This document shows positions 8,307 through 59,709 of a stretch of DNA of 64,000 nt, piece by piece. The notes under the pieces were generated by a model that searched no databases, was not told the origin of the DNA, and was given only the letters and a program-made list of their open reading frames with translations. How positions within the stretch are numbered: position 1 is the first letter of the stretch; the number at the start of each line of letters is the position of its first letter. The DNA lies in NCBI GenBank assembly GCA_023246655.1, contig JAHFHX010000003.1:24875-88874 (forward strand). Reading direction: 5' to 3'. This DNA is from Candidatus Magasanikiibacteriota bacterium. Its GTDB lineage: Bacteria; Patescibacteriota; Patescibacteriia; Magasanikbacterales; GWA2-37-8. Both the position numbers and the translations under genes were made by a program.

Positions 8307-9335
8307 TCATTCAATTTCATCTTTTCTCTTTCCCACAAAATGTTGGGGCGAGAGTGTCTCCACGTTGGCATCAAGTGTCACGAGCAGATTGTGCTCTACA
8401 GTAAGTTCCGCTGTACCAGTTTTGGCATCATATGAAGCTAATGCAATATGTGGTTCGGCATCGCTTGAGACTACCTTTTCGATGGTTGGATCAATTTTAT
8501 CTGTTATTGTTCGATCTAACAACTGGGTCAGCTGTTCAGCATCATAGGTCACCGCTATTATGGTACTGGTACCATTTAAAACAAATTCACTTACCTCTTC
8601 ACCTATCTGATGGTTTGAAACAACATTCTGGTTACTCAAAGCCATAATCAGATGCTTACCGGGAACAGTTGAAGGAAGTGTCTTGGCAAAAGCGGCTTGA
8701 GCCTTTTGTGCATAGATTTGCTGTGCGGCCTTAAGATCGGAATCACTCAGAACGCCAATGGTGGCTACCCCCCCCCGCATGGGTTCCGTACTTTGCGCGT
8801 ATACCTGTTTCTGACGATCGGGTGATAAACCAGGAATAGTAAATTGAGTTGGGTCAATATCCGAAGTGCTCCCTGGTTGATCGGCATACACTGGTACCGT
8901 TACTTGCCCATTGGCAGGCACTATTGCCCGCTCCGCCAAACGAAATAGTATTCCTTGGGCAGTGAGGAGACGCGTTGTGGCGACTAATGTTTGTGAACTG
9001 TTGCTTTTATTATAAATTACAGCTGTGCCCTTGGCGACACCAGTGGTTGTCTTATTGCCCGTTGGCTGAAAATGTTCTGACCAGGTAAATACAGTTGAAC
9101 TCGCCAAACCCGTAATGGTATCTTTCCCGTCCGGCTGTTTGGCAACCTTCGCTACCAAGCTCACAATTCGTTGATCAGCTTTCGCTACCACCGTAATGGT
9201 GGCTTTTTTTGACGTCATAAAAACGACCACCGCAAATAATACCACCGTCAACACCAAAAAAGAAAGCGCGATTATTTTATACAAGCGAACGGGTGGCTCT
9301 GGTGGTGGTTTGGTTGACATGCGATAGGTGATCAT
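8307..9335 (-). CDS. hypothetical membrane-anchored protein (one N-terminal TM helix, Thr-rich)
   Basis: N-terminal hydrophobic segment LYKIIALSFLVLTVVLFAVVVFM. Lies next to the pilus ATPase. Confidence 0.6.
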   Translation of the reverse strand: MITYRMSTKPPPEPPVRLYKIIALSFLVLTVVLFAVVVFMTSKKATITVVAKADQRIVSLVAKVAKQPDGKDTITGLASSTVFTWSEHFQPTGNKTTTGVAKGTAVIYNKSNSSQTLVATTRLLTAQGILFRLAERAIVPANGQVTVPVYADQPGSTSDIDPTQFTIPGLSPDRQKQVYAQSTEPMRGGVATIGVLSDSDLKAAQQIYAQKAQAAFAKTLPSTVPGKHLIMALSNQNVVSNHQIGEEVSEFVLNGTSTIIAVTYDAEQLTQLLDRTITDKIDPTIEKVVSSDAEPHIALASYDAKTGTAELTVEHNLLVTLDANVETLSPQHFVGKRKDEIE

Positions 9336-9447: not shown

Positions 9448-11163
9448 TTATTCCGCCACTCGAAATATTTCCTCCACGGTTGTAATCTTATCAAGAGCCT
9501 TAAGGAGCCCATCCTGTGCCATCGTTACCATCCCGTCCTTTACGGCTAATTCCTGAATGATATATTCCGAAACGTTGCTACTTAAAATAACCTGTTCAAT
9601 CTCTTTGGTCATAATAAAAATTTCATAAATACTTATTCGCCCTTTGTACCCAAGACCGCTACATACCGAGCACCCAGCACCGCGATAAAAATGTAAATCA
9701 TTAAAATTAAGTTTGGTTTTCTCTTCCGTTGGTAGAGCCTGTAAAATATTCACAACGCGCTCTAATTGTTCCGTTGGCAACACGGCTTCTTCGCGGCACG
9801 CCTCACAAATGCGACGCACCAACCGCTGACCAATAACGGAATTTAACGCCGGTGCAAGCAAAAATGATTTAACTCCCATCGACAAAAACCGCGGAATGGC
9901 ACCGGCCGCACTATTGGTATGAATAGTGGACAACATTAAATGCCCAGTAAGCGCCGCCTGAATAGAAATTTCGGCGGTCTCTAAATCACGAATTTCACCC
10001 ACCATACAAATATCAGGGTCTTGGCGCAGAATACTTCTCAAACCCTTAGCAAACGTATAATCATGGCTTGCATCTACCTGGCTCTGGTTCACCCCCTCCA
10101 TCTTAATTTCAATGGGATCTTCTAAGGTGATAATTTTTACCCCGGGCTTGTTAAGAAGACGAAGAATAGCATACATGGTGGTGGTTTTTCCAGACCCAGT
10201 AGGACCAGTAGTAATAATCATACCATTGGGTCGCTCAATCTCGCGGCGCAGGCGCTCATATGCCATCCCGCGAAGACCCAAATCATCAAAGGTCACAACA
10301 TGACTACCGCTATACAAAATTCTCATCACCACACTTTCTCCGTGAATCGTCGGCATAGTAGAAACACGGACGTCAATACTACTTGATGTTAGTTTTAAGG
10401 TGACCCGTCCATCCTGAGGACGGTCGGTAACATTAATTTTAAGAGCGGCCACTAGCTTAATTCGAGAAATAAATCGTTTCCACTGTTCCTTAGGAAGACG
10501 CGCCACTTCATGAAGGACACCGTCAATACGATATCGCATCACAATCCCGCCTTCTTCCGCCTCCACATGAATATCGGTGGCATTTATTTTAAGTGCTGCA
10601 GCAATCATGAGCGTTAAGATATCACTCATGGTTACGGATTGAAACGCCTCTTCCAAACTTTTTAAATTATCAATGCCGCCTTCGTAACGAGCCAATTCTT
10701 CATCAGTAATAATTACATCCTTACTCACGGATTTGACAATGGGCAAATTAGCATACAATGCTAACACCCGCTCTAAGCTGTGCTCGGAAATAAAGTACAG
10801 TTGCGTTTGGGCATGGTGGCGTTCACCCAGTTGATACACCAGCTCCTCGACTTCCGGACGCGGCTCAACAGTACCAAGCCGCATCTCTTCCGGCGTAAAA
10901 TAAAAACAGATCGTTCCATTTTCGCGAGCGATCTCCTCAGGAATAACTTTCAGCGCTTCCGAGGAAACGGGGAAAGTTGCCAGATCAATGTACGGAAGCT
11001 GAGAGCGGGCCGCTTGCGCGGCTGCGAGCTGCTCTTTCTCCTGAGTGGTAATCTGCTCCATCTTATGAGAAAATTTGGCCTGGACACCACTTGGTCCACC
11101 GCTCACCGGTTTCGCTGACGCTCCGCTGCCAGCCAAATCTTTTATCGAAGGAAAATCGGACAT
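9448..11163 (-). CDS. pilB: type IV pilus assembly / type II secretion ATPase (GspE/PilB family)
   Basis: Walker A motif TGPTGSGKTTT, a GspE_N-like N-terminal domain and a C-terminal tetracysteine-like CSVCSGLGYKGR. 571 aa. Confidence 0.85.
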   Translation of the reverse strand: MSDFPSIKDLAGSGASAKPVSGGPSGVQAKFSHKMEQITTQEKEQLAAAQAARSQLPYIDLATFPVSSEALKVIPEEIARENGTICFYFTPEEMRLGTVEPRPEVEELVYQLGERHHAQTQLYFISEHSLERVLALYANLPIVKSVSKDVIITDEELARYEGGIDNLKSLEEAFQSVTMSDILTLMIAAALKINATDIHVEAEEGGIVMRYRIDGVLHEVARLPKEQWKRFISRIKLVAALKINVTDRPQDGRVTLKLTSSSIDVRVSTMPTIHGESVVMRILYSGSHVVTFDDLGLRGMAYERLRREIERPNGMIITTGPTGSGKTTTMYAILRLLNKPGVKIITLEDPIEIKMEGVNQSQVDASHDYTFAKGLRSILRQDPDICMVGEIRDLETAEISIQAALTGHLMLSTIHTNSAAGAIPRFLSMGVKSFLLAPALNSVIGQRLVRRICEACREEAVLPTEQLERVVNILQALPTEEKTKLNFNDLHFYRGAGCSVCSGLGYKGRISIYEIFIMTKEIEQVILSSNVSEYIIQELAVKDGMVTMAQDGLLKALDKITTVEEIFRVAE

Positions 11164-26085: not shown

Positions 26086-26123
26086 AACTTTATGGACTTT
26101 CGACTTTATAAACTTTATAGACT
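26086..26123. repeat. phased GACTTTAYR repeat block immediately upstream of the femAB start codon
   Basis: Sequence aactttatggactttcgactttataaactttatagact. Confidence 0.8.
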
Positions 26124-26897
26124 AGTCGCCAGATAACTGGCGACCACCGCCGCCGTCTCCGCCCTGAGTGTCAACGGCCCAAGGGAGCGAATGAGACAGT
26201 CAGTCTTTTCCGCAGCCGCTCGTTCTGCTTTGGACCAACCACCCTCTGGTCCAACAAACACAGCAATTGATTGCGAGACCTCTCTTCCCGTTCTCTCCTC
26301 TGCGGAGGAGAGAAGGAATCGTTCGCGCCCTCTCCTTTGCAAAGGAGAGGGCAGGGTGAGATCTCGTTCAGGCACAAATTGAGTATCGGTAAAATCACAA
26401 AAAATCTTAATCTCATTCTCAATCTTTAAAGCGTCACCTAACTTGATCGGTTCTCCAAATTCCGGCACCACCGCGCGCCCACACTGTTCACTGGCTTCTT
26501 TCATAATCCGTTCAAGACGGGCCCGATTCAGTCCGGTCTTCACGATATGCTCAGTAATTATTGGTACAACCTTCACCACTCCTACCTCCGTGGCTTTCTG
26601 AACCACCCACTCAAAATTATCTCCTTTAAGGATTGCACAATACAACGTCACCGGTCGTAAAGTATTTAGTATTTGGTACTTAGTATGTGGGGTCGCCAGA
26701 ATCTCAATTTCGATCTTAGTCTTATCCATCTTCACGATCTTTGCAGTCTTATTTTCACCCTTTCCATCGCTTAAGAGTATTTCTTCGTCTAGCTTCAACT
26801 TCAAAACCTCCCGCCACTGGTGCACAAGGTCGGGCTTACTGACGGTGAGTGAAGGTTGCGATAAATCACTATCAATGATAAAACGGTGACGACGCAT
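26115..26897 (-). CDS. rsmE: 16S rRNA (uracil1498-N3)-methyltransferase RsmE, carrying an in-frame palindromic insertion
   Basis: RsmE N-terminus MRRHRFII, and a VGPEGGWS knot motif. Contains an extra segment PSPLQRRGRERFLLSSAEERTGRE. Confidence 0.8.
   Translation of the reverse strand: MRRHRFIIDSDLSQPSLTVSKPDLVHQWREVLKLKLDEEILLSDGKGENKTAKIVKMDKTKIEIEILATPHTKYQILNTLRPVTLYCAILKGDNFEWVVQKATEVGVVKVVPIITEHIVKTGLNRARLERIMKEASEQCGRAVVPEFGEPIKLGDALKIENEIKIFCDFTDTQFVPERDLTLPSPLQRRGRERFLLSSAEERTGREVSQSIAVFVGPEGGWSKAERAAAEKTDCLIRSLGPLTLRAETAAVVASYLATSL
26285..26355. repeat. palindromic repeat element, family B (paired hairpins ctctcctctgcggaggagag and ccctctcctttgcaaaggagaggg), inside the rsmE coding sequence
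   Basis: Two perfect palindromes separated by gaatcgttcgcg. A homologous element lies in sucC at 45505-45625. Confidence 0.75.
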
Positions 26898-49005: not shown

Positions 49006-50850
49006 CTATTCCACCGTCACACTCTTCGCCAAGTTCCGTGGCCGATCCACATCCCGACCCAATAACACGGCCATATGATACGCAAATAACTGTAGCGGTA
49101 AGGTGTTAATGAGCGGCTCCAACAATTCCATCGTCGGTGGCACAAAAATGACGTCATCAGCTAATTCTTTCGCCTGCTCATCTCCTTCCGTTGCGATGAG
49201 AATGACGGGGGCTTGACGCGCACGAATTTCTTCGATATTACTGCGCATTTTATCATACAACTGATTCTTTGTCAGGATAGCAAACACCGGAAAATCGGGC
49301 GAGAGGAGAGCAATGGGCCCGTGTTTCATCTCTCCGCCCGGGTACGCTTCGCTATGAATATAAGTAATCTCTTTGAGTTTAAGTGATCCTTCGAGCGCCA
49401 CGGGATAATTGATCCCCCGACCCAAAAAGAAAAAATTTTTATAGTGCTGATATTTTTCTGCCAGCATCTTAATATAATCTCCTTGACGAAGAATTTTTTC
49501 CATCTTTTCCGATACCTCCCGGAGTGCTGCAACCACCCGTTGCCCGGTGGCAACCGTCACCCGCCGGGTCCGACCAAATTGCAAAGCATACATCAGCAAT
49601 ACGGCTACCATATTAGTGTATGCCTTAGTGGATGCCACCGCGAGCTCTGGTCCGGCATGAATGTAGGTGCCACCATCAGTTTCGCGGGCAATGGTTGAAC
49701 CAACCACGTTCACAATACCGCGGACATAAGCCCCCTTACGCTTGGCTTCACGCAACGCTGCAATGGTATCAGCGGTTTCACCAGATTGGGATACACCAAA
49801 TACCAACGTCTGGCGATCAATAATCGGATCACGATATCGAAATTCACTGGCTACCTCCACATCAGTGGGGATACCTGCCAACCGTTCAAAAGCATATTTG
49901 CCCACTAAAGCCGCATACGAAGCAGTACCACAAGCGATTAAAATTATCCGATTAACTGAATGCATCTGCGCCTCTGTCATGTTCAACCCCCCCAGATGCG
50001 CCGTTCCTTCATCTTCAACCAAACGCCCTCGAAGGGCATCCTTAATGACCGTAGGTTGATCAATAATTTCCTTCAACATAAAGTGGCTGTAGCCACCTTT
50101 CTCAGCTTGATCCTCGTTCCAATCAATATGCTCAGCTGCCTTAATTATTTCCTGATCTTCCAAGTTAAAAATTTGCAGTCCGTGATCGGTAATTTCAGCA
50201 ATCTCACCATCATCCAAAAAAATAACTTGCTGAGTGTAAGCCAGCATCGGTGAAGTATCCGAAGCAACATAGTATTCCTTATCACCAACCCCAACCACCA
50301 ACGGACTCCCCAAACGCGCTGCCACTAATTTACGTGGTTCATTTTTATGCATCACCACCAGGCCATAGGTACCCCGCACATGCTGCAAGGCTTTCTGCAC
50401 TGCTAAACGAAGATCCCCCTGATAATGGACCTCAATAAGATGCGCCAAAATTTCGGTATCGGTCTTGGATCGAAGTGTGTGGTCTTTCAAAAAACCGCTC
50501 CGGAGTTCGCGGTAATTTTCAATAATACCATTATGGACAACAATAATATCACCGCTACAATCCGTATGTGGATGGGCGTTCTCTTCCGTAACACCACCGT
50601 GCGTGGCCCACCGCGTGTGGGCAATGCCCATGGTACTGTTGAGTGTCATGGTCTTGAGCTTCTCCGCCAAATTATCAATTTTACCAACCGCTCGCACTCG
50701 CTCAATTGTCGTTTCGCTATTTTTTTCTGACTGCTGATTCAAAACTGCAATACCAGCCGAATCATAACCCCGATATTCCAAACGCCGCAGACCTTTAACC
50801 AAAATAGGTAAGGCTGATTTTGTTCCAATATAGCCAACAATTCCACACAT
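49006..50850 (-). CDS. glmS: glutamine--fructose-6-phosphate aminotransferase
   Basis: True N-terminus MCGIVGYIG (Cys2 nucleophile), and two SIS domains. The track start at 50931 over-extends into the upstream gene. Confidence 0.9.
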   Translation of the reverse strand: MCGIVGYIGTKSALPILVKGLRRLEYRGYDSAGIAVLNQQSEKNSETTIERVRAVGKIDNLAEKLKTMTLNSTMGIAHTRWATHGGVTEENAHPHTDCSGDIIVVHNGIIENYRELRSGFLKDHTLRSKTDTEILAHLIEVHYQGDLRLAVQKALQHVRGTYGLVVMHKNEPRKLVAARLGSPLVVGVGDKEYYVASDTSPMLAYTQQVIFLDDGEIAEITDHGLQIFNLEDQEIIKAAEHIDWNEDQAEKGGYSHFMLKEIIDQPTVIKDALRGRLVEDEGTAHLGGLNMTEAQMHSVNRIILIACGTASYAALVGKYAFERLAGIPTDVEVASEFRYRDPIIDRQTLVFGVSQSGETADTIAALREAKRKGAYVRGIVNVVGSTIARETDGGTYIHAGPELAVASTKAYTNMVAVLLMYALQFGRTRRVTVATGQRVVAALREVSEKMEKILRQGDYIKMLAEKYQHYKNFFFLGRGINYPVALEGSLKLKEITYIHSEAYPGGEMKHGPIALLSPDFPVFAILTKNQLYDKMRSNIEEIRARQAPVILIATEGDEQAKELADDVIFVPPTMELLEPLINTLPLQLFAYHMAVLLGRDVDRPRNLAKSVTVE

Positions 50851-50861
50851 ATAAAATAAAC

Positions 50862-51653
50862 TTAATTTTTCTCCATTCGTTTTCGCCGATCTGCTTCTGC
50901 TAACTGTTCCGGCGTATTTACGCCAAACCACTCACTATTATCAGGCAATTGCATCAGGCGATATGGTTGATGCTCGGCATGTGCCATCGCCAGTGCGGTG
51001 GGGAGGCCATACTCACCGAGCTTGCGAAGCTTGGGCATGGTTAAAAACATCGCTTCAAACCAAGCCCGATTAAACACAAACGTTCCGGTGCTAATTTCCT
51101 TAATTAATGTTTGTTCGGCAGTAAGATATTCTTTCTCAATAATTTCCACTCTACCATCCGGATGCCGTATAATCCGACCGAGTGCTGCTGGGTTATCTGC
51201 CAATGCCGTCAGAAGAGTCAAAACTGGCTTCTCTACAAGATGAATGTGCATTAAAGATTGTAAGGTTTCAGGACGATAAAAGGCACTATCATCACCGCCG
51301 AGTACCAGCACATCGGTAACTGACAAAGGCAATGCCCGCATGCCAGCATATGCAGCGTGAGCCGTGCCCAACAATTCCTCTTGAAAAGCATAACTTACCG
51401 TTGCCCCCAAATATTTCATCAGGCGCTCTTTTTGAAAATTAACTACCAAACAAATGTGCTGTGGAGAAAAACCTAATTGTTGCAACGTTTCAATAGTATA
51501 ATGTATCATTGGTCGCCCACCAATTTCGGCCATTACCTTGGGGCCAGTTGTATGCTTAAGACGCGTGCCTTTGCCCGCGGCTAAAACGACAACACCGATA
51601 GTTGACAAAACTAAATCTTTTCCAGTTGGCATAGATATGGATAAACAGCGCAC
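50862..51653 (-). CDS. sugar-phosphate nucleotidyltransferase (GlmU N-terminal-like, no acetyltransferase domain)
   Basis: Motif GVVVLAAGKGTRLKHTTGPKVMAEIGGRPMIHY. 263 aa, without left-handed beta-helix repeats. Confidence 0.7.
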   Translation of the reverse strand: MRCLSISMPTGKDLVLSTIGVVVLAAGKGTRLKHTTGPKVMAEIGGRPMIHYTIETLQQLGFSPQHICLVVNFQKERLMKYLGATVSYAFQEELLGTAHAAYAGMRALPLSVTDVLVLGGDDSAFYRPETLQSLMHIHLVEKPVLTLLTALADNPAALGRIIRHPDGRVEIIEKEYLTAEQTLIKEISTGTFVFNRAWFEAMFLTMPKLRKLGEYGLPTALAMAHAEHQPYRLMQLPDNSEWFGVNTPEQLAEADRRKRMEKN

Positions 51654-52477
51654 TAAGAAAAAGCAAAATCTACTACTAAAGGAAAATGATCAGACGCCTC
51701 CAAGGATTCCCCAGCAGTATAAAAAAAGACTTCTTTGATATATGAGGCTAATCCCGGAGAAACAAAGATATAATCCAAACGCAGAGGAACAATATGGGTT
51801 GGATCCTCCCGCAGGGAAGTAGGTACAGAAGAAACTGGATACCGCCCCTTTATATCGAAAACATCATGTAATCCAGCGTCTAAGATACTATTAATAACAT
51901 CGTAGCGCAATGCTGCGTCACCAAATTTTCTAATACTTTTTCTCTGCAATGATAAAAAAATATCCTGGGTATAACAATCAGCCGGAGACAGTGAGTTAAA
52001 ATCACCCATCATAATGAGATTTTTTTCTAATCCAAAATGGCTAAGAATAAGACGAACTTCTTTAAATCGCTCGTCCTCTGAACGCGGATCAAGATGCACC
52101 AGTACGATTGTCACTTCACCGATATCCGGAGAATAATATCGCGCTACCGCGCTTCCATGCCAAAGGCCAACCCGTTCGCAACGAGTGTTAAAAAGTGAGA
52201 AAAGCGATAAAAAAACTAAATGGTATGCGGTATTGGCCTGGCAAAAAAAACTGTTGTGAAGACCGGTTGCCGCTTGCATATAACGTAATACTTGGTAATT
52301 ATCATCATGCCAACCGTTGGCTTCACAAAAACCCACGATATCAGGAGAACAGTCACGCACGACCTGGGCAATCCTTCCAAGCCGATTAACGCCGCCTTTA
52401 TAAATATTGTAAGACAAAAATCTCATATCAATTGGGATGTTGAGGGTGGTGCCGTGATGACGGCACCAACCCTCCAA
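51653..52477 (-). CDS. endonuclease/exonuclease/phosphatase (EEP) family protein
   Basis: Motif MRFLSYNIYKGG...DIVGFCEANGW, and the catalytic motifs LDYIFVS and DHFPLV. Confidence 0.75.
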   Translation of the reverse strand: MEGWCRHHGTTLNIPIDMRFLSYNIYKGGVNRLGRIAQVVRDCSPDIVGFCEANGWHDDNYQVLRYMQAATGLHNSFFCQANTAYHLVFLSLFSLFNTRCERVGLWHGSAVARYYSPDIGEVTIVLVHLDPRSEDERFKEVRLILSHFGLEKNLIMMGDFNSLSPADCYTQDIFLSLQRKSIRKFGDAALRYDVINSILDAGLHDVFDIKGRYPVSSVPTSLREDPTHIVPLRLDYIFVSPGLASYIKEVFFYTAGESLEASDHFPLVVDFAFS

Positions 52478-52482
52478 GACAC

Positions 52483-53466
52483 TTAGAGAAACGGTCGCAT
52501 CAGTTCAAGAAACTTCTGCAGACGTTCCTCACGAGTCTTCGCGTCAGCCGCAGCGGCTTGGCTCGTATTATCAAACACGGCCTCCATGATCCGCTGACGG
52601 ATAGCGCCAGCCGGATACGGAATGAGTCGAATCGCGAGCTCGCGAAGCGTGTCAACGTCGGTCGTACCCTCTAGGAGAGCGAGACGCTGACGCGCGTCCA
52701 GGCTGAGCACACGGCTGTCAGGAAGGGACTCAAGAGCGGAGCGTACGAAGCAACGCAATGAGTCGGGCAAGCGGTCGAGGGAATGCGCAAAAGGCGCTTC
52801 CCAGTCCGGATCAACAGCCATCAAGTCGAAACGCAGGCGTCGCAGCACCCCGAGGGGGGTGAACTTGCGCTCGACTTCAGCTGCAACGATGGCTGCATCG
52901 CTCGGATTGGGATAGTGCACCCAGTACTTCCCCTCATGGAGGACCAACGGTGGGAAAATGTCGATGTACACCACCAGGTCTCCGTCGCGGGTGGCGAAAT
53001 TAGACAGGCGGGCGTCGATGCCAACGCACCTCTGGCCTTCCACCAGAAGTTTGCTGATGGCACCAACGATTGCCGGTAGCACCGATCGGACACGCTCAGG
53101 GCAGCGCTGCACGAAACTCATGCAGTCCTCCCCCTCATCCGAAACCAGGTGAACCGGGCAAACGTTAACTGAATAGATCCCATAGACGCTGGGCAAAGGC
53201 ACATCGTGCCTAGCCAATTCGTCACGAAAAAATTCAGTCACCCCGTTGATATGCTCCACTGCCTGGGAGCGCTCCGCATCCGGCAAGTGCTGGAAAACAC
53301 CCTGGGAAGGCAACTTTATGACCCACTGGTCGTTACCGCACTCCACGCCGATGATCTCGGCGTAACGAGAGCTCCTCCTCCACCTAACACGGGGCTCCGA
53401 GAGAGCCGCCCCGAACAATTTCAGTAGCTTTGCGGTCTCCATAGAGCCTCCTTTCATTGTCTTCAA
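52483..53466 (-). CDS. hypothetical protein with a protein-kinase-like fold signature; high GC
   Basis: VIKLPS (beta3 Lys-like), GIDARLSNF (catalytic-loop-like D..N) and YIDIFPP (DFG-like). GC ~57-60% against a ~40-45% background. Confidence 0.4.
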   Translation of the reverse strand: MKTMKGGSMETAKLLKLFGAALSEPRVRWRRSSRYAEIIGVECGNDQWVIKLPSQGVFQHLPDAERSQAVEHINGVTEFFRDELARHDVPLPSVYGIYSVNVCPVHLVSDEGEDCMSFVQRCPERVRSVLPAIVGAISKLLVEGQRCVGIDARLSNFATRDGDLVVYIDIFPPLVLHEGKYWVHYPNPSDAAIVAAEVERKFTPLGVLRRLRFDLMAVDPDWEAPFAHSLDRLPDSLRCFVRSALESLPDSRVLSLDARQRLALLEGTTDVDTLRELAIRLIPYPAGAIRQRIMEAVFDNTSQAAAADAKTREERLQKFLELMRPFL

Positions 53467-53537
53467 GGCTCAAATAACAAGCCCCAGAGAATTGATATTT
53501 AACAAACATCAACTATTCAGGGTTCATTTAAAAAAAC

Positions 53538-54272
53538 TTAAAGTTTACTCCACAACTCATCAAAAATCACCCGCTGTGTTTGATGTACTCCTTCATTTTC
53601 AATTACCACACCCACCGGTTCCTGTTGAGCGTTTAAGGAAATATAGGCTGTTTTGCCTGGATAAATAATAATATACGTTGGCGTAGCACTAGCGGCCTTG
53701 AGCCACTTGCGTTCATCCAGCCCACGCAACTCCCCGCCCTCACCAATTGCAATCACTTTCACTGCAATCCCTTTGGCTACCCGCACATCACTAAAGGTTT
53801 CAAAACCGGCATATAGATATTCACGGATACCAGCCGTAGAATAAATGCGATACTCAAGATCTGCTCTCTCTTCACAGACCTTTAACACATCTTCCAAAAT
53901 GTTATGTATCTCGTCGCGCGCAAAATAACGTGCCACTGGTTGTTCGCCGCCCCGATGATGCAGCGACCGCAATTCGGGAATAATGGTTTGCAAATTTTCC
54001 TCCGCTTCTTTCAGTTCTTCCTTTTCTTTTTCCACAACAAGCCGCAACTTCTCAGGGTCCTCAGCCACAAAATACTGTTTACTTTCCTTGGCATAAAAAT
54101 CTACCAGGCCACGCTCCTGGAGCCATTTTAGCCCATCATAGACTACGCCTCGATTTAGCTTACTAGCCTCGGCTACTTTTCTAACTGGTGCTGGGCCTAA
54201 TCCTAAGAGCGTCAGGTATATGGTAGCTACTTTTTCGGAAAACCCAATTTTTTTAAGAATACTGATATCCAT
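53538..54272 (-). CDS. trmB: TrmB-family sugar-responsive transcriptional regulator
   Basis: N-terminal wHTH GFSEKVATIYLTLLGLGPAPVRKVAEASKLNRGVVYDGLKWLQERGLV. Confidence 0.75.
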   Translation of the reverse strand: MDISILKKIGFSEKVATIYLTLLGLGPAPVRKVAEASKLNRGVVYDGLKWLQERGLVDFYAKESKQYFVAEDPEKLRLVVEKEKEELKEAEENLQTIIPELRSLHHRGGEQPVARYFARDEIHNILEDVLKVCEERADLEYRIYSTAGIREYLYAGFETFSDVRVAKGIAVKVIAIGEGGELRGLDERKWLKAASATPTYIIIYPGKTAYISLNAQQEPVGVVIENEGVHQTQRVIFDELWSKL

Positions 54273-54445
54273 GTGATAGAATCTGACAAAAAAATCTAGA
54301 CTATGATTAATACGATATGGCTATTTTTAACTAATTCTAAGTATAACAAAGCATTTCTAATTGTCAAATTTCTTGTAACAATAGTTGTGGATAACTAAAA
54401 ATTACCTTATACAAAGATCATACTATATGAGCAGTGCTCATTAAT

Positions 54446-54566
54446 TTTATTATAATATAGCCAAAATTATTATATTTTTGCCGTGAGGACCTAGCGAGCC
54501 TGTCACAATTGGCCGTGGCGAGCGAACCCGCAACAAGAAAATATAATAATTTTGGCTATATTATAG
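54446..54566. promoter_or_regulatory. 28-bp perfect inverted repeat (ttattataatatagccaaaattattata / tataataattttggctatattataataa) with a 58-bp GC-rich spacer, in the divergent trmB-pfk intergenic region
   Basis: Arms at 54446-54478 and 54537-54566, read directly from the sequence. Confidence 0.7.
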
Positions 54567-54651
54567 AGTTTGACAACTAGCCCTGGTCATTACTATGGTA
54601 AAAAATCTGTAGTTGAGGTATAATGAGCCCGTAAATAATTTACCTAAACGC

Positions 54652-55812
54652 ATGAAAAAAATCTTTGTCCTCACCGGTGGGGGGTTAGCTCCAGCCTTAA
54701 ACCCAACCCTCTATGGAGTAATTACGGCAGCGCGAGAACGTGGTTGGAGTGTGATAGGGGGGTTGTTTGGCTGGGCTTCGCTCTTGCGTAATGGCCAACA
54801 CATTGATCTTGATAATCTCCCGATTGAAGCAATCCGTAATGTTGGTGGAACCTTCCTGCGCTCCTCGCGCACTAACCCGTTCGCCTTTACCGATGGTATC
54901 TATCAACTAAAAGAACGACTACACGATCTTGGTATTGATGCGGTGGTAGCGATTGGCGGAGACGATACGCTGGGAGCGGCAGCTGAACTATTCCGTGAAG
55001 GAATTCCGGTTGTGGGAATTCCCAAAACGATTGATAATGATCTTGCCGGCACCTATTACACACCCGGCTTCCCTTCCGCCGCCCACTATTTAAGTTCCTT
55101 CACCAACGAAATCCGTGAAGATGCTGCCTACGCACTATCTCGTATTTTTATCATCGAATCCATGGGTATGAAAGCTGGCTGGCTCGCCGCGGCTGCCCGC
55201 TACGGGAACGCCGACATTATTGTTCCTCCCGAGCAACCAGTTTCATTGCGGGCCATGCTTGGTGCGCTGGAAAAACGCTACACCGAAAATGGAAACTACG
55301 CCGTGGTGGTAGTGGCCCAAGAAGCACACTTTGATGAACCGCTTGAGCGTATCCGCGATCATTATATTGATGAACAATACGGCCACCAACGCCACAGTTT
55401 TATTTGTGTGAGCTTGCGGGAAAAAATTAAAAAGGAATTGGGAGTTGATACTAAAGCACTCTACCCGGGAAACTGGCTTGAAACTGGTCGCCCTATTCCA
55501 CTGGATCGTGATATCGCTATCAATCTAGGTCACCACGCCATAAAAATGATTGCCGAAGCACGGCTTGGTTACATGGCTGCCATTGTTCGGCCTGATGAAA
55601 AAAAGACTGATCTCGCCGTGAGCGAAATAGCCCTGAGTGCTATTGTTGGTAAACAAAATTATCGCATTATGCCGCCTGGTTTTTTTGATTTTTCTAACTT
55701 CCAACCCACCGCGGCCTTTTGCGACTATATGGAACCGATCCTCGGCCGGTGTGAACCAAAGGATGACGACTACACCAAACTTATTAAAAAAATTACGAGC
55801 CAGGTTGGGTAA
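54652..55812 (+). CDS. pfp: 6-phosphofructokinase, predicted pyrophosphate-dependent
   Basis: IGGDDT and GIPKTIDND. These give Asp and Lys at the positions of E. coli PfkA Gly104 and Gly124, the known PPi-PFK signature. The start at MKKIFVLTGGG is preferred; the track start at 54613 is a TTG. Confidence 0.8.
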   Translation: MKKIFVLTGGGLAPALNPTLYGVITAARERGWSVIGGLFGWASLLRNGQHIDLDNLPIEAIRNVGGTFLRSSRTNPFAFTDGIYQLKERLHDLGIDAVVAIGGDDTLGAAAELFREGIPVVGIPKTIDNDLAGTYYTPGFPSAAHYLSSFTNEIREDAAYALSRIFIIESMGMKAGWLAAAARYGNADIIVPPEQPVSLRAMLGALEKRYTENGNYAVVVVAQEAHFDEPLERIRDHYIDEQYGHQRHSFICVSLREKIKKELGVDTKALYPGNWLETGRPIPLDRDIAINLGHHAIKMIAEARLGYMAAIVRPDEKKTDLAVSEIALSAIVGKQNYRIMPPGFFDFSNFQPTAAFCDYMEPILGRCEPKDDDYTKLIKKITSQVG

Positions 55813-55826
55813 CCTGGCTTTTTTCT
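55799..55826. terminator. bidirectional terminator between the convergent pfk and pfkB genes
   Basis: Stem gccaggtt / aacctggc with loop gggt, then TTTTTT. The reverse strand has a T-run 6 nt after the hairpin. The hairpin overlaps the pfk stop codon. Confidence 0.55.
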
Positions 55827-55827
55827 T

Positions 55828-57000
55828 CTAGCGCCGCTGCCGTCCATGGAAACGGCGGATGCGCTCCGGCGTGGGGATGGTCCATGGTCCTTGATTTCCG
55901 ACCTTGTGTCCGGAAACAAAGACGGCGTCACGAATCACCGTGACCAACCGATCCCAGCTGCCGATAGGTCGCTCCATTTGCCGAGCGAGGATGGTAGCGA
56001 GGAAGGAATCCCCGGCACCTGTGGGTTCCACCACTTTGGTCCGCTCCGCAATTGGACGCTGGTGGAAGGTGCCCCCGGCATACGCCACCACTGCCCCCTC
56101 TTTATCGAGGGTAACGATGGTAATGGCAGCGCCGAGTTTGGCGACCTCGCCAATGCGCTCAGGCACGAACGTGCCCCCGATGAGGAGCCCGGCCTCGTGC
56201 GCGTTCATCACGAGGAGATCGAGTTCCCGAATGAGCGCCACCACCTGTGGCCGCAAGTGGTGCTGGGCAGGGTCGATGAGATTGGGGTGCGGCACCAGCG
56301 CCACAAAGGGCTGGTTGCTGCGGCGGTGCCCCTGCCGCAAGCGGCGCACAGTGTCCTCCGCAAAGCTGAAATCACTGGGCCGAAGGCTGGTGAAGGCCAC
56401 CGTCCGCGGACGGATCAACTCCGCCACGTATTCCCCAATGCCCGTGGAAAGGACATGCCGCCCCTTCTTGCACAGGAGGAGAATGCGGCCAGTGCCGCGC
56501 TCGCGCAGGCGCACCGAGAACGACGTCAGGTTAGCCGGAATGACGCCATACTCAATACCCCACTGCTCCAGGTCGCGGAGCAACTCAACGCCGTCCGCAT
56601 CCACCTGGCCGTCCTTACCGACGCCAACCGCACCAACCCCACCAACCAGCCTGTTGGGCAAAAGTTGGCGCAAATCGATGAGGGCGTTCCCCGTGCTCCC
56701 CGAGGTGACGGTTCCGCCGTCGCGCTTGCCCCAAAAGGCAACCTGCTCGCCACCGTCCTTCAAGGTGACGATAAAGTTGCCACCCTGCCCTTTGGGGGTG
56801 CAGTGGATGGCGGCGACGGTGAGCTTTTCCCCCTGCTTTTTGCCCTGCCGAGCTGCCTCCAGGAGCTGGGTAGGGATCTGGTCTACTGCAATGCGTTGCT
56901 GCCGGTCCAGGCTTGCCAGGACCAGGCAGTCAACCTCACCCAACCCATCCGTCCATTTGAAGAACGGGGGGCTGAGACGCCGATGCTTTCTTCGCGTCAT
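55828..57000 (-). CDS. PfkB-family carbohydrate kinase; high GC
   Basis: PfkB signature 2 VVEPTGAGDSFLATILARQ and an N-terminal GG-type motif. GC ~65-68%, so all six frames are open here. Overlapping plus-strand ORFs are rejected. Confidence 0.7.
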   Translation of the reverse strand: MTRRKHRRLSPPFFKWTDGLGEVDCLVLASLDRQQRIAVDQIPTQLLEAARQGKKQGEKLTVAAIHCTPKGQGGNFIVTLKDGGEQVAFWGKRDGGTVTSGSTGNALIDLRQLLPNRLVGGVGAVGVGKDGQVDADGVELLRDLEQWGIEYGVIPANLTSFSVRLRERGTGRILLLCKKGRHVLSTGIGEYVAELIRPRTVAFTSLRPSDFSFAEDTVRRLRQGHRRSNQPFVALVPHPNLIDPAQHHLRPQVVALIRELDLLVMNAHEAGLLIGGTFVPERIGEVAKLGAAITIVTLDKEGAVVAYAGGTFHQRPIAERTKVVEPTGAGDSFLATILARQMERPIGSWDRLVTVIRDAVFVSGHKVGNQGPWTIPTPERIRRFHGRQRR

Positions 57001-57083
57001 TTCCCGTCTCCTTGATGACGGTTAGGGTTTAGGAACCAAATTTACCCTAACACCAATTTAACTAATCCGTCAATAGATCGCTG

Positions 57084-57114
57084 CAAAACAAAAACTGCCC
57101 TCTGGGGGCAGCTG
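57084..57114 (-). terminator. rho-independent terminator after gap
   Basis: On the minus strand, stem ctgccc / gggcag with a 5-nt loop, then TTTTTGTTTT. Confidence 0.55.
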
Positions 57115-57144
57115 TTATGAACAAAAATCAATTATTCCAAACCG

Positions 57145-58161
57145 TCATGGCCTTCCTTGCCTTTCGCCTATCGTCTCTACTAATTTCGCCAATTGCGTCA
57201 CATATCCCCACTCGTTATCATACCAGGCTTGGACAAATACTTGGGTACCACCAGTAACCAAGGTGGACAGAGTGTCAATGGTCGCACCATAGGGGGAACG
57301 AATGTAATCCACTGAAACCAAACCAACTTCTGAGGTTGCTAAACGATTGGGATGCACTTGGGCAGCGTTTTTAAATAATTCATTCACCTCGCCAGCGGTG
57401 GTTGGCTTGTTTACTTCTGCCACAAAACTCAAAATTGATGGCACTGCTACTGGCACACGCAAGGCATTGCCATCGAGTTTACCCAAAAGTTCGGGAATTA
57501 CTTTGCCAATGGCTTTGGCCGCTCCGGTTGACGTTGGCACTATTGACATCCCGGCCGCGCGTGAACGCCGAAAACTTTTATCTTTGTGCGGGTTGTCTAC
57601 TAAATGTTGGTCGTTAGTATAGGCATGTGTTGTAATCACCGTACCATGTTTAACACCAAAAGCCTCATGCAAAATTTTAACAACTGGCGCGAGGCACGTG
57701 GTGGTGCATGAGGCAGCAGAAATTATTTTATGTTTGGCCGGATCAAATAATTCATGGTTAATTCCATAAATCATAGTAATATCCTCATCTTTGGTGGGGG
57801 CGCTGATAACTACATATTTAGCTCCGGCTGCCAAATGCTTTTCCGAAGCTGCCCGATTCTTAAACACTCCAGTTGATTCAATTACCACATCAACATCATA
57901 ACTTCCCCAAGGCGCTCGCTCTAACTCATTTTCATGGTGCAAAGGAATGTTCTTACCATCAATAACAAGCATCTCATTACCTACAAACGAAACTGGCCAC
58001 TCCCACGGTCCATAGACTGAATCATATTTTAACAGGTGGGCATAAATATCCGCCCCCGAACGACTATTAATTGCAACAAGCTCAAACACTGGGTTACCCC
58101 AGATAACACGAGTAAGAATACGACCGATACGGCCGAAGCCGTTGATAGCGATGCGAAGCAT
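57145..58161 (-). CDS. gap: glyceraldehyde-3-phosphate dehydrogenase
   Basis: Motifs MLRIAINGFGRIGR and ASCTTTCLAPV (catalytic Cys). Confidence 0.95.
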   Translation of the reverse strand: MLRIAINGFGRIGRILTRVIWGNPVFELVAINSRSGADIYAHLLKYDSVYGPWEWPVSFVGNEMLVIDGKNIPLHHENELERAPWGSYDVDVVIESTGVFKNRAASEKHLAAGAKYVVISAPTKDEDITMIYGINHELFDPAKHKIISAASCTTTCLAPVVKILHEAFGVKHGTVITTHAYTNDQHLVDNPHKDKSFRRSRAAGMSIVPTSTGAAKAIGKVIPELLGKLDGNALRVPVAVPSILSFVAEVNKPTTAGEVNELFKNAAQVHPNRLATSEVGLVSVDYIRSPYGATIDTLSTLVTGGTQVFVQAWYDNEWGYVTQLAKLVETIGERQGRP

Positions 58162-58629: not shown

Positions 58630-59709
58630 TTACACAATACTCACCTCACTACACAAATACACATCCTGCACCGCATTGAGCAATTTAATTCCTTCCGCCA
58701 GTGGCTTCTGAAAAGATTTCCGACCAACAATTAACCCCATCCCACCGGCTCGCTTGTTAATGACAGCTGTTTTCACTGCTTCTGCTAAATCACTTGCGCC
58801 ACCACTCTCCCCGCCGGAGTTAATAAGACCAACTCGCCCCGCAAAACCGTTTACCACTTGGTAACGACACAAATCAATTGGATGGTCACTGCATAAATCG
58901 GTGTACATTTTTTCGGAATATTTTCCAAATTTCTTATCACCCTGGTTCAAAGCCTTGTAGCCGCCATTCCTCATCGGCAACTTTTGCTTTACAATGTCAG
59001 CCTCGATCGTTGCACCAAGATGGTTGGCTTGGCCCGTGAGATCAGCGGCGTCATGATAGTCCACACCGTCAACCTTGAAAGCATTGTTACGTAGATAACA
59101 CCAGAGCACGGTGAACATTCCTTTTTTGTGAGCTTCCGCAAACGCTGCGGAGACTTCTTGAATTTGGCGTTTGGATTCTGGCGAACCAAAATAAATCGTA
59201 GCCCCCACACCCGCCGCGCCCATGTCCTACGCTTGTTGCACCGAACCGAACATAATTTGATCGTAGTCATTGGGGTATCGCAAAAAATCATTGTGGTTCA
59301 ATTTTACAATAAAGGGAATTTTGTCCGCGTATTTTTTGCTCACCATTCCTAAAACCCCAAACGTCGATGCCACTGCATTGCATCCACCTTCCACAGCAAG
59401 TTTGACAATACGTTCCGGGTCAAAATAGTCCGGGTTCTTGGCAAAACTGGCGCCCGCACTATGTTCAATTCCCTGGTCAACCGGGAGAATAGAAACGTAA
59501 CCGGTTCCAGAGAGTCGCCCATAATCGCGCATCTTCTTTAAACTCTTAAGCACCGCTGGCGTCCGGTCGGAAATACTTAACACATCATCAATAAAACTTG
59601 GGCCTGGCGCGTGCAAACGGTCTTTGGACATTTTGGGAGAATTAAAGGCGAGTAAGTTGTCGCTGTCGCTACCAAGAAGTTGTTGAATGATTGAATAGAG
59701 TTGGGACAT
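58630..59709 (-). pseudogene. fbaB: class I fructose-bisphosphate aldolase (DhnA/FbaB type) interrupted by an in-frame TAG (59227-59229)
   Basis: Both halves align end-to-end with E. coli FbaB ([55 protein letters not shown]). The TAG sits where E. coli has Phe in EQAFNMGA. Confidence 0.75.

Follow-up and report, generated by a model that had tools for sequence, protein, structure and literature searches.

Two GC-rich kinase-like genes of a Patescibacterial genome: evidence for long residence and for predicted ORF-wide mRNA structure

Results

The kinase genes and their neighbours

The stretch of DNA analysed here (the window, 64 kb) contains two GC-rich genes, henceforth gene A and gene B, among genes related to sugar metabolism. 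The annotated features around them are as follows (coordinates are those of the window).

49006–50931, minus strand, GlmS (glutamine-fructose-6-phosphate aminotransferase), SIS and GATase domains
50862–51653, minus strand, NTP-transferase of the sugar-1-phosphate nucleotidyltransferase type (PF12804, PF00483), 3′ of EEP
51653–52477, minus strand, EEP (endonuclease/exonuclease/phosphatase, PF03372), 5 bp 3′ of gene A
52483–53442, minus strand, gene A, protein-kinase-like, 319 aa from ATG 53442 (the ORF reaches TTG 53466)
53538–54272, minus strand, TrmB-family HTH regulator of normal GC (PF01978, 44 bits)
54340–54367, minus strand, sigma-70-like promoter 5′ of TrmB (TTGACA-16-TATACT, TG extended; a pattern match only)
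54613–55812, plus strand, phosphofructokinase (PFK) of normal GC, convergent with gene B (PF00365, 217 bits)
55797–55820, bidirectional, predicted terminator-like hairpin in the gap between PFK and gene B
55828–57000, minus strand, gene B, orphan PfkB-family kinase, 390 aa (PF00294, 58 bits against a cutoff of 25.8, residues 239–340)
57093–57113, minus strand, predicted terminator-like hairpin 3′ of gap and 5′ of gene B
57145–58161, minus strand, gap (GAPDH) of normal GC, used as a housekeeping control

The preliminary description of this DNA had correctly named the neighbours as TrmB, PPi-type PFK, gap, fbaB and glpX; the GGDD and PKTIDND residues of the PFK are what we take to be the PPi-type signature. 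TrmB probably heads a transcription unit TrmB-A-EEP-NTP-transferase-GlmS. Gene B appears to form a unit of its own, as the predicted hairpin between gap and gene B suggests that it is transcribed alone. No mobility genes were present among the annotated neighbours (49006–58161) and no tRNA lies close to either gene, those of the window being located at 25–29 kb.

Gene A likely starts at ATG 53442, which has AAAGGAGG upstream, rather than at TTG 53466. Its AlphaFold model (pLDDT 89.4) matched CK1, JAK, MAPK and ADCK3 kinases in Foldseek with probability 1.0, so that on the model the protein is kinase-like in fold, as had been proposed. Like other members of the protein-kinase-like superfamily it is bilobal and retains the beta3 Lys, the catalytic-loop Asp/Asn and the DFG-like Asp (K51, D151, N156 and D169 are invariant). 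It also matches Pfam DUF6206 (PF19709), although weakly and under the gathering threshold, and no solved structure related by sequence was detected. What sets the family apart from both is its own motifs (VHxPNP, ERKFxPxGxLRRLRF) and its constant EEP neighbour. The family is small, with 262 clusters at 50% identity. It has members in MAGs of Parcubacteria, Magasanikbacteria, Nomurabacteria, Saccharibacteria, Paceibacterota and Buchananbacteria; all the fetched loci with an organism name came from CPR MAGs, with one doubtful exception.

Gene B was rightly described as a PfkB kinase, scoring above the Pfam threshold, and its sequence matches in PDB are ribo/fructokinases. It shares with the PfkB family (ribokinase-like fold) the GAGD motif with the anion hole and catalytic Asp (residues 328–331), NxxE (266–269) and an N-terminal Gly-rich motif (SGSTGN, 100–105), all of them invariant. 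It differs in carrying some 60–90 additional N-terminal residues and in that its C-terminal third alone aligns to the profile; no NCBIfam equivalog came close to its cutoff. A Shine-Dalgarno sequence (AAGGAGA) precedes ATG 57000. Only two homologues were found among 5.8 billion proteins, both GC-enriched and both placed, like gene B, between fbaB and PFK.

With TrmB, GlmS, an NTP-transferase and PFK nearby, the two kinases probably act on sugars or amino sugars, and control by TrmB is plausible. In other genomes, TrmB occurs near gene A in six loci, a similar NTP-transferase in three (L006, L007, L014) and GlmS in three (L001, L006, L014).

Two islands of high GC bounded by coding sequence

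Gene A (GC 0.579, GC3 0.665) and gene B (GC 0.632, GC3 0.752) stand about 4 and 6 standard deviations, respectively, above the 57 other ORFs of the window (GC 0.446 ± 0.031, maximum 0.51; GC3 0.424 ± 0.059). The window as a whole has a GC content of 0.450 (sd 0.044 in 500-bp windows), and windows above 0.54 occur only within 52501–53500 and 55751–57000, confirming that these two genes are its only GC islands. An initial estimate of 57–68% GC was right as to GC-richness and slightly generous as to range, since 300-bp windows peak at 0.617 in gene A and 0.657 in gene B. Each island edge lies no more than about 30 nt from the corresponding end of the CDS; the intergenic DNA on either side has a GC of 0.28–0.47. 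EEP (0.418) is even more AT-rich than the genome.

The codon usage (RSCU) of the two genes is correlated (r = 0.66) and bears no relation to that found elsewhere in the window (r about 0). GC1 is shifted too, as is amino-acid usage, with Arg at 9.5–10% against 5.1% and Lys at 3–4% against 6.6%. This Arg/Lys shift is also what general GC pressure predicts.

Gene B had been reported as open in all six frames; we found three, namely the sense frame plus two on the antisense strand (391 and 368 codons). In the others the longest open runs are 89, 104 and 46 codons. Codon content alone accounts for one of the antisense frames. The other (frame −1, 368 codons) was matched by none of 300 codon shuffles. 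Long antisense ORFs were found neither in the two B homologues (124 and 69 codons) nor in gene A.

The composition itself is all that would favour a chimeric assembly or a contaminant junction, a possibility that we regard as negligible. An independent ENA assembly (L041) covers 50516–54496 of the window, 3981 bp including both edges of the gene A island, with a single mismatch; in other samples, upwards of 25 independent contigs likewise show a GC-rich gene A between AT-rich neighbours, and the B homologues have the same flanks.

Synteny and persistence of the anomaly in relatives

Gene A adjoins EEP in 23 of 30 distinct loci. Pairwise distances of the two proteins are strongly correlated (Pearson 0.95, Spearman 0.76) and their neighbour-joining trees are congruent. 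In many loci the two genes are convergent and hence not co-transcribed. The GC of gene A exceeded that of the host genes in 24 of 28 distinct loci (median +0.10, Wilcoxon p = 6e-6), by 7–20 points in 16 of the 28 genomes, even though host GC ranges widely (0.31–0.58).

These data bear directly on the earlier suggestion that a kinase pair was recently acquired from a high-GC donor, in which case its composition would not yet have ameliorated. Atypical GC, GC3, codon and amino-acid usage would all fit such an event, as would the fast divergence of both proteins: gene A is 41% identical to a relative in which gap, fbaB and glpX are 68–78% identical, and gene B 45% identical to a homologue whose PFK is 70% identical. 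However, orthologues carrying the same anomaly are syntenic in many CPR genomes and gene A co-diverges with an EEP gene of normal or low GC. The best non-self matches of A and B are only 45–46% identical and come from CPR-like contexts; the 5.8 billion proteins contain nothing closer to either gene and hence no visible donor. The islands, moreover, end with the coding sequences and bring no foreign flanks, and neither a mobility gene among the annotated neighbours nor a nearby tRNA accompanies them. Nor can the two genes be one transferred pair, because TrmB and PFK of normal GC lie between them and L006, the closest of the sampled relative loci, carries A without B; it would take two independent insertions of one gene each, at a distance of 2.3 kb. 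Acquisition of one or both genes in this way is thus most improbable, and we consider both to be long-resident in the CPR (Patescibacteria) lineage.

Another reading is an ancient GC-rich state still in decay, or repeated replacement of the resident allele by GC-rich alleles circulating among CPR, comparable to hypervariable loci of odd composition, O-antigen clusters for example; any excess of mRNA structure would then be incidental. The GC excess among A orthologues is indeed continuous (−0.05 to +0.20), and evolution is fast in A, B and EEP alike. Parsimony gave S>W to W>S ratios of 18:9 (L024/L028) and 30:3 (L009/L021), but GC-rich outgroups bias the count towards S>W, and noise alone is estimated to yield about 3:1 and 8:1 with these outgroup sets. 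In a clade of 70–77% identity four-fold sites fall short of full saturation (0.39–0.54 against 0.24–0.28), which leaves room, arithmetically, for a very GC-rich ancestor and some decay since. Deeper pairs, on the other hand, are saturated at synonymous sites and both members keep the offset; between the window and L006, four-fold sites are saturated in A, EEP, TrmB and gap, and glpX is just above saturation. GC3 of gene A follows that of the host (r = 0.80, slope 0.75, in the 16 loci with an excess above 0.07), and the A and EEP trees agree while EEP remains AT-rich. We judge decay or replacement unlikely.

In the same 16 loci the logit offset of GC3 over the host is roughly constant (1.12 ± 0.30). 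On established population-genetic reasoning, forces of the GC-biased conversion type can account for offsets about as large as 1.1. GC-biased gene conversion, or a different local bias in mutation or repair affecting a gene prone to recombination, would raise GC at all codon positions and would accordingly fit this value and the shifts in GC1 and amino-acid usage. Conversion tracts, however, are not expected to match CDS edges within tens of bases and to spare EEP 5 bp away, nor would they explain the hairpin-forming arrangement of synonymous codons, the strand asymmetry and the compensatory changes described below. Such a bias therefore seems to us quite unlikely.

Predicted structure of the transcripts

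All structures reported here are thermodynamic predictions, and folding z-scores compare the minimum free energy (MFE) with that of synonymous-codon shuffles. Both genes fold far better than expected from their proteins and codons, with whole-ORF z-scores of −4.4 (A) and −5.1 (B) and local scores of −5.2/−6.5 and −6.0/−4.1. For 41 other ORFs of the window the scores were about −0.5 ± 1.0 (minimum −3.4); EEP gave −1.3 to −1.6, gap +0.8 to +1.0 and GC-rich control genes +0.9 to −2.6. Predicted local MFE per nucleotide reaches −0.40 in A and −0.44 in B, against −0.15 to −0.29 in the other ORFs. Domains of −15 kcal/mol or lower number 12 across the gene A ORF and 14 in gene B, and the most prominent are listed below.

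52633–52713, minus strand, strongest predicted stem-loop domain of gene A (−39.0 kcal/mol)
53007–53155, minus strand, two adjacent predicted stem-loop domains of gene A (−36.7 and −35.6 kcal/mol)
56155–56238, minus strand, strongest predicted stem-loop domain of gene B (−37.1 kcal/mol)
56341–56427, minus strand, predicted stem-loop domain of gene B (−35.3 kcal/mol)

Relatives behave similarly. The B homologues scored −7.1 (L004) and −3.4 (L005), A orthologues scored as low as −12.9, and GC excess correlates with folding z (Spearman −0.63, p = 7e-4). L002 (GC excess +0.20), with a z of just about −1.3, and L007, with about 0 to −1.4, show that a GC excess is possible without marked excess structure.

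Conservation of the hairpins was apparent in one clade of 10 A orthologues, for which RNAalifold gave −113.6 against −41.3 ± 5.5 for codon-column shuffles (z −13), while EEP scored 0. Across 166 local pairs, 92% of cells were paired, compared with 41–48% when the partner was slid, and double changes affected 34 pairs against 19 ± 2.7 in shuffles (0 of 500), with the structure derived from the same alignment as was tested. Synonymous sites are more conserved in gene A than in the neighbouring gene. Conserved hairpin positions were detected neither in the clade to which the window belongs (z +0.26) nor when the three B sequences were compared (z −1.1), and the covariation support thus belongs to a sister clade and not to the genes of the window.

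Could the hairpins instead serve the DNA, as template-switching inverted repeats or a functional DNA structure, or reflect an overlapping antisense gene? The antisense strand does beat its own shuffles (z −3.4 to −7.7), and the long antisense frame −1 of gene B could be read in this way. Yet the sense strand was the better folder in all seven genes compared, with more G:U pairs, and one-sided changes between G:C and G:U or between A:U and G:U are frequent in the conserved A helices. The lack of long antisense ORFs in the B homologues and in gene A, with the second antisense frame due to codon content, weighs against an antisense gene. We hold explanations of this kind to be very unlikely. Decay or allele replacement, for its part, leaves the z-scores of −5 to −13, the sense-strand bias and the covariation unexplained.

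Discussion

Structured mRNA as the proposed source of high GC

On balance we favour the view that A and B are long-resident genes in which selection for ORF-wide mRNA structure keeps both GC-rich. Gene A would work with the adjacent EEP-family phosphoesterase, the pair being kept across many CPR groups, and gene B would be a rare, divergent PfkB kinase fixed between glycolytic genes and PFK. The high GC would be accompanied by local stem-loops that lie densely along the sense transcript and are specified mostly by synonymous positions, and selection for such highly structured mRNA is the most likely mechanism: in an AT-rich genome, mRNA structure needs G:C and G:U pairs, which raises GC at all codon positions and only within the CDS. 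We infer this causal role as well as its purpose; low translation and/or a longer transcript life are the likely benefits. Tuning of translation within an operon is not a general purpose, given that A and EEP are convergent in many loci. Causation could also run in the opposite direction, with GC-richness coming first and merely permitting structure. The synonymous shuffles and the GC-rich controls speak against structure as a pure by-product, though not for either direction.

Since relatives show the same position, the same anomaly and predicted hairpins, the composition is best seen as a long-kept property of the genes, and their odd GC is no sign of recent gene transfer.

Comparison with known systems

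Like horizontally acquired genomic islands, A and B show odd GC, GC3, codon and amino-acid usage and encode proteins that diverge faster than their neighbours. They differ from such islands in keeping their syntenic position in relatives, in the recurrence of the anomaly among orthologues, in the co-divergence of A with a neighbour of host-like composition, in edges that coincide with the CDS and in lacking a donor or an annotated neighbouring mobility gene.

AmgK-MurU and NahK-type systems are salvage pairs of an anomeric sugar kinase and a nucleotidyltransferase. Gene A resembles them in its kinase-like fold and in its amino-sugar setting, with GlmS and a short NTP-transferase close by; in L006, HAD and NTP-transferase are fused. 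Unlike them, it has no sequence similarity to the APH/AmgK family, an NTP-transferase is nearby in just 3 of 30 other loci and its constant partner is the EEP enzyme, for which we know of no part in these pathways.

Katz and Burge, writing in Genome Research in 2003, reportedly found that local structure in the coding regions of bacteria is under weak selection throughout the genome. The native sequences of A and B likewise fold better than their synonymous-codon shuffles, but the mean shift per gene is reported to be small there, whereas A/B-type genes reach z-scores of −4 to −13 and the other ORFs beside them centre near −0.5.

A further parallel comes from E. coli operons, in which units of mRNA structure span whole ORFs, change from one ORF to the next and are predictive of translation efficiency (Burkhardt et al. 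2017, eLife, PMC5318159). As in those units, the structure of A and B is confined to the ORF, unlike that of adjacent ORFs, and encoded in the sequence. In our case the structure is predicted only and many relatives have no operon joining A to its partner; the effect, in contrast to E. coli, would lift the GC of whole ORFs by 13–20 points, and it persists over deeply diverged lineages, with covarying helices in one clade.

Two GC-rich coding sequences in an AT-richer context

In 500-bp windows the GC content of the window is 0.450 (standard deviation 0.044), and only two segments along its whole length, 52501–53500 and 55751–57000, rise above 0.54. Windowed GC and per-ORF GC and GC3 thus bear out the preliminary description, which had reported two strongly GC-rich genes amid AT-richer neighbours. 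These genes, and the one adjoining the first of them, are as follows.

52483–53466, minus strand: gene A, kinase-like; probable start ATG at 53442, behind AAAGGAGG
55828–57000, minus strand: gene B, PfkB-family kinase (PF00294)
51653–52477, minus strand: EEP, an endonuclease/exonuclease/phosphatase family gene, neighbour of gene A

The ORF of gene A has a GC content of 0.579 (GC3 0.665) and that of gene B 0.632 (GC3 0.752), against 0.446 ± 0.031 (maximum 0.51) and a GC3 of 0.424 ± 0.059 in the remaining 57 ORFs. Relative synonymous codon usage (RSCU) is correlated between the two genes (r = 0.66) and not between them and the window background (r about 0), and both proteins are enriched in Arg and depleted in Lys. 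They have, in other words, the atypical base composition and codon usage of a horizontally acquired island. The rise and fall of GC agree with the CDS ends of both genes within about 30 nt, and the intergenic DNA flanking them has a GC content of only 0.28–0.47. Misassembly at the gene A junctions, a concern of the preliminary description, was ruled out by an independent ENA assembly (L041) that matches 50516–54496 with 1 mismatch in 3981 bp and therefore reproduces both edges of the island.

It is not the case, as had been stated, that all six frames are open over gene B. Three are open, one sense and two antisense (among them 391 and 368 codons), and the remaining frames reach at most 89, 104 and 46 codons. 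The antisense frame of 368 codons (55904–57025, plus strand) was matched by none of 300 codon-order shuffles, and the other long one is explained by codon content. An overlapping antisense gene was nevertheless ruled out: long antisense ORFs are confined to the gene B of the window, and in its two homologues the 368-codon frame is not open (124 and 69 codons).

Two kinase-like proteins

Gene A matched no curated family above threshold. Its score against Pfam DUF6206 (PF19709) was 21.4 bits, below the gathering cutoff of 30.4, with 30 residues aligned only; a distant relative (P0019) passes this cutoff at 35.1 bits, and a full-text literature search found no paper mentioning DUF6206. Sequence searches against the PDB gave only spurious matches, hence no sequence-detectable solved relative; the same kind of search with EEP matched nothing in the PDB. 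The AlphaFold model (pLDDT 89.4, pTM 0.87) had 314 structural matches in the PDB at E <= 1e-3 (probability 1.0, TM 0.3–0.47), headed by CK1, JAK, MAPK and ADCK3/COQ8, and the modelled fold is bilobal and protein-kinase-like. Residues K51, D151, N156 and D169 (the last in D-x-F-P-P) are invariant among 13 sequences; mapping them by inspection, we take them to be the beta3 Lys, the catalytic-loop Asp and Asn, and the metal-binding Asp. The family is small: clustering at 50% identity leaves 262 clusters out of 1.84 billion representatives. Three distant relatives combine the kinase-like domain with another one, namely a PP2C phosphatase (P0029), an AAA ATPase (P0136) or a TIR domain (P0137), which hints at roles of other branches in signalling or defence. 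As to gene A, gene B and EEP themselves, a defence system was ruled out, none having a PADLOC match.

Gene B scored 58.0 bits against PF00294 (cutoff 25.8), in an alignment that covers residues 239–340 only, i.e. model positions 163–268 of 302. Its sequence matches in the PDB are ribokinases and fructokinases (E 2e-7 to 1e-3), and the three known sequences share the invariant motifs S100-G-S-T-G-N105, N266-x-x-E269 and G328-A-G-D331. By the established features of the family, GAGD corresponds to the anion hole with the catalytic Asp and the N-terminal Gly-rich stretch to the substrate motif, NxxE being the third of the family motifs. Membership in the PfkB sugar kinase family, as given in the preliminary description, is therefore upheld by the Pfam threshold and by the retained catalytic and ATP-site motifs. 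Among the NCBIfam PfkB specificity classes (ribokinase, 1-PFK, fructokinase, KDG kinase etc.) the best score was 32 bits, with cutoffs of 216–500. Searches of 5.8 billion proteins, one with a profile among them, found just two homologues (45% and 42% identity), and the AlphaFold model, built on an alignment of 3 sequences, was unusable (pLDDT 40.6).

Genomic neighbourhood and putative pathway

The other neighbours are genes for an NTP-transferase, GlmS, TrmB, gap and a phosphofructokinase (PFK). ATP-dependent PFK enzymes carry GGDG and PGTIDND; the PFK at 54613–55812 has GGDD and PKTIDND at these sites, which is consistent with the PPi-dependent type to which it had been assigned, and NCBIfam matches did not discriminate between the PPi and ATP types. 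As to a possible TrmB-regulated sugar operon, a TrmB-domain gene sits immediately upstream of gene A and is itself preceded by a strong promoter-like site. These pattern matches suggest that TrmB, gene A, EEP, the NTP-transferase and GlmS form one predicted transcription unit starting at 54367–54340. Gene B, flanked by a terminator-like signal after gap and by a bidirectional one shared with PFK, appears from the same kind of pattern matches to be a separate unit.

The divergent intergenic region between TrmB and PFK holds a perfect 28-nt AT-rich inverted repeat (54451–54478 and 54538–54565) enclosing a 59-nt GC-rich spacer. Its motif TATAGCCA/TGGCTATA is found again at 54315–54334, and the repeat gives weak Rfam miRNA-precursor matches on both strands. 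It may be a set of TrmB operators or a small palindromic element.

The firm association of gene A is with EEP, and we infer a pairing of kinase and phosphoesterase. The looser link with TrmB, GlmS, NTP-transferase and PFK suggests a place in sugar or amino-sugar metabolism, one possibility being a salvage route that would yield a sugar-1-phosphate for nucleotide activation. The closest sampled relative locus (L006) has, in place of the plain NTP-transferase, a HAD-phosphatase/NTP-transferase fusion of 468 aa (7281–8687), reminiscent of the phosphatase-plus-uridylyltransferase steps of sugar salvage. Gene B lies beside the putative PPi-PFK and the glycolytic genes and probably encodes a kinase acting on sugars or sugar phosphates. 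The nearby fbaB gene (DeoC/FbaB-type aldolase, 58630–59709, minus strand) is split into two ORFs by one in-frame TAG at 59227–59229 (...CAA GCG TAG GAC ATG GGC...). The L006 orthologue lacks this stop, which in the window may reflect a nonsense mutation or pseudogene, an error of sequencing, or a codon that is read through.

Resident genes with a recurrent compositional anomaly

Related loci were drawn from assemblies, species-representative genomes and JGI metagenomes. The gene A family occurs in metagenome-assembled genomes labelled Parcubacteria, Magasanikbacteria, Nomurabacteria, Saccharibacteria, Paceibacterota and Buchananbacteria. EEP adjoins gene A in 23 of 30 distinct loci; the 30 also include 6 with TrmB, 4 with GlmS and 3 with an NTP-transferase close by. 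Pairwise distances of gene A and EEP are correlated (Pearson 0.95, Spearman 0.76) and their neighbour-joining trees agree, and from this we conclude that gene A and EEP were inherited as a pair. Both gene B homologues lie in the same fbaB–B–PFK arrangement as in the window, with PFK 70% and 51% and FbaB 83% and 67% identical to those of the window, and both are GC-enriched relative to their flanks.

The anomaly is likewise shared. Gene A exceeds the other genes of its own locus in GC in 24 of 28 distinct loci (median +0.10), and in 16 of the 28 it stands 7–20 GC points above a host whose GC ranges from 0.31 to 0.58. In those 16 loci its GC3 follows that of the host (r = 0.80), from which it is offset by 1.12 ± 0.30 on the logit scale. 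GC-biased gene conversion, or some other local mutational or repair bias, would account for an offset of this size; it does not fit islands that end exactly with the CDS, nor the predicted hairpins described below, and we regard it as very unlikely. EEP, in contrast to gene A, is usually below the GC of its own genome; it is 3–10 GC points more AT-rich in the window and in L002, L006, L009, L012, L013, L015, L016, L018, L025 and L032.

Between the window and L006, identity is 68% for gap, 78% for fbaB, 76% for glpX and 64% for TrmB, against 41% for gene A and 37% for EEP. Four-fold sites are saturated in gene A, EEP, TrmB and gap (glpX is slightly above saturation). Over such a distance a foreign composition, once inherited, would be expected to have faded.

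The preliminary description had proposed recent acquisition of a kinase pair from a high-GC donor, best-hit taxonomy being one of the checks it named. This is unsupported. We found no donor lineage, the nearest non-self homologues of both genes being 45–46% identical and in candidate phyla radiation (CPR)-like contexts; the annotated neighbours (49006–58161) include no mobility gene such as an integrase or transposase; and normal-GC genes separate A from B, while L006 has A without B. There is no tRNA target near either gene (the tRNAs of the window are at 25–29 kb only) and no foreign flanking DNA, the GC islands stopping at the CDS ends. An acquired island would be absent or differently placed in relatives, but gene A is syntenic in the 23 of 30 loci and gene B in two of two. 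Recent transfer is thus contradicted by synteny, by the co-divergence of A and EEP and by the recurrence of the GC anomaly in orthologues, even though composition tests would still flag both genes (RSCU, Arg up, Lys down).

Two further loci deserve mention. A 6-kb contig of 0.38 GC labelled uncultured Gammaproteobacteria (L010, CAYJWS010000065.1) carries a gene A homologue of 33% identity with no EEP neighbour detected on the contig, and may be a mis-binned CPR contig. In Parcubacteria GW2011_GWA2_48_9 (L001/L008) one locus holds two gene A paralogues (604–1617 and 10001–10957).

Predicted folding of the messages

Both ORFs are predicted to fold much better than shuffled sequences. Predicted minimum free energies gave z scores of -4.7 (A), -4.9 (B) and -2.3 (EEP) against dinucleotide shuffles, and -4.4 (A) and -5.1 (B) against synonymous-codon shuffles, which preserve protein and codon usage. 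With pairs limited to 90 nt, global and 40-codon-block shuffles gave -5.2 and -6.5 for gene A and -6.0 and -4.1 for gene B. For comparison, 41 other ORFs of the window had z scores of about -0.5 ± 1.0 (minimum -3.4), and GC-rich control genes from relatives ranged from +0.9 to -2.6. A within-gene GC mosaic was rejected as the cause of the low energies: GC is uniform along both ORFs and block-restricted shuffles still give -4 to -7.5. Strong local stem-loop domains, 12–14 per ORF, are predicted along the full length of both genes, so that the modelled structure is uniform within each ORF and distinct from that of adjacent ORFs. No known RNA family was recognised: Rfam gave nothing for either gene at the gathering score, nor with the limit relaxed to E <= 1. 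In all seven genes compared, the antisense strand folds less well than the sense strand, in energy and in z, and the sense strand has more G:U pairs, which points to RNA rather than DNA.

Orthologues also fold strongly (gene B of L004 -7.1 and of L005 -3.4; gene A orthologues down to -12.9), and over 25 loci GC excess is correlated with folding z (Spearman -0.63, p = 7e-4). In L002 and L007, gene A is GC-rich with little excess folding. Of the two L001 paralogues, one lies close to EEP and TrmB and is both GC-rich (0.56 versus 0.48) and hairpin-dense (z -6.0); the other, adjoining GlmS and a GlmU-like gene, is near genome composition (z -1.4).

Some other ORFs were also noted. The most extreme z after A and B among the 41 tested (up to 50931) belongs to 26115–26897 (minus strand, z -3.4, GC 0.48). 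Other GC-rich ORFs of related loci were rejected as a class with A and B, being a heterogeneous set of low-complexity Asp/Gly/Thr or Gly/Arg proteins, one ribosomal protein and small unknowns; as controls they showed no strong excess folding. Small ORFs near gene A in L006 (59–631) and L022 (97–684), with GC3 of 0.84 and 0.74 amid AT-richer neighbours, folded only modestly better than expected (z -2.6 and -1.4).

Predicted helix conservation and covariation in one clade

Ten gene A orthologues with 70–77% amino-acid identity served as a sister clade for covariation. RNAalifold gives them a consensus energy of -113.6 kcal/mol, where codon-column shuffles yield -41.3 ± 5.5 (z -13), and the neighbouring EEP-like gene scores 0. 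Over 166 local pairs, 92% of cells pair, compared with 41–48% when the partner is slid. Double-sided changes occur in 34 pairs versus 19.0 ± 2.7 in shuffles (0 of 500 reaching this number), for a structure derived from the same alignment on which it was tested. At four-fold sites the excess identity in gene A is twice that of the neighbouring gene. Positional helix conservation was detected neither in the more divergent gene A clade of the window (z +0.26) nor among the three gene B sequences (z -1.1).

An ancient GC-rich state that is still decaying, or repeated allele replacement, would agree with a GC excess that varies continuously among orthologues and with synonymous sites that, in the 70–77% clade, fall short of full saturation. 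It leaves the folding results unexplained, and we consider it unlikely. A polarised substitution test for ongoing GC decay did yield an excess of S>W changes, and was rejected as uninformative because of outgroup bias: under majority-rule parsimony with GC-rich, partly saturated outgroups, noise alone is expected to give S>W ratios of about 3:1 to 8:1.

Selection on mRNA structure as a proposed explanation

Genes A and B are resident, fast-evolving kinase genes with GC-rich, predicted hairpin-dense coding sequences, a trait common to their CPR orthologues. The reading that fits most of the observations, resting on the folding models, is that selection for a highly structured mRNA limited to the ORF would keep both genes GC-rich. 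Stable stems require G and C in an AT-rich genome, and GC-richness would thus follow from structure. Such selection would be expected to produce a CDS-limited island, persistence at a constant offset and a shift at all codon positions, together with a non-random arrangement of synonymous codons, a sense-strand bias, and helices conserved locally with turnover over long distances. The GC-rich gene A of L002 and L007, with its little excess folding, is unexplained by structure selection alone.

The structure could serve to hold down translation of the two kinases, to prolong the life of the mRNA or to protect it from nucleases. Because gene A and EEP are convergent in many relatives, tuning within an operon cannot be its general purpose. 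More broadly, and with rather less than even confidence, we propose that a few CPR genes, the kinase-like partner of EEP and the orphan PfkB kinase, carry an ORF-wide, selectively maintained RNA architecture that would hold the gene 10–20 GC points above its AT-rich genome over very long periods, either as a distinct and heritable structured-ORF form of post-transcriptional control or as an RNA with a second function, e.g. nuclease resistance or transfer. If so, structured ORFs would systematically mimic horizontal-transfer islands in composition scans.

Whatever the cause, genes A and B show by example that calls of horizontal transfer made from composition can mislead, since they look foreign, are resident, and have an anomaly that is inherited and gene-specific. 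They point to mRNA structure as a possible force on whole-gene base composition in reduced, AT-rich genomes; if this is confirmed, base composition, selection at synonymous sites and the control of expression would be tied together in organisms for which few regulators are known. Literature searches brought up no relevant paper on GC-rich CPR genes. The analysis also defines an uncharacterised CPR-wide two-gene module, a kinase-like enzyme with an EEP phosphoesterase, often near TrmB, GlmS or a nucleotidyltransferase, and an orphan PfkB kinase beside the PPi-type PFK, all of them candidates for missing CPR steps in sugar or cell-wall precursor metabolism.

The closest precedent for the predicted structure of genes A and B is found in the operon mRNAs of E. 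coli, in which structure units, each spanning an ORF, vary from one ORF to the next and are predictive of how efficiently the ORFs are translated (PMC5318159).
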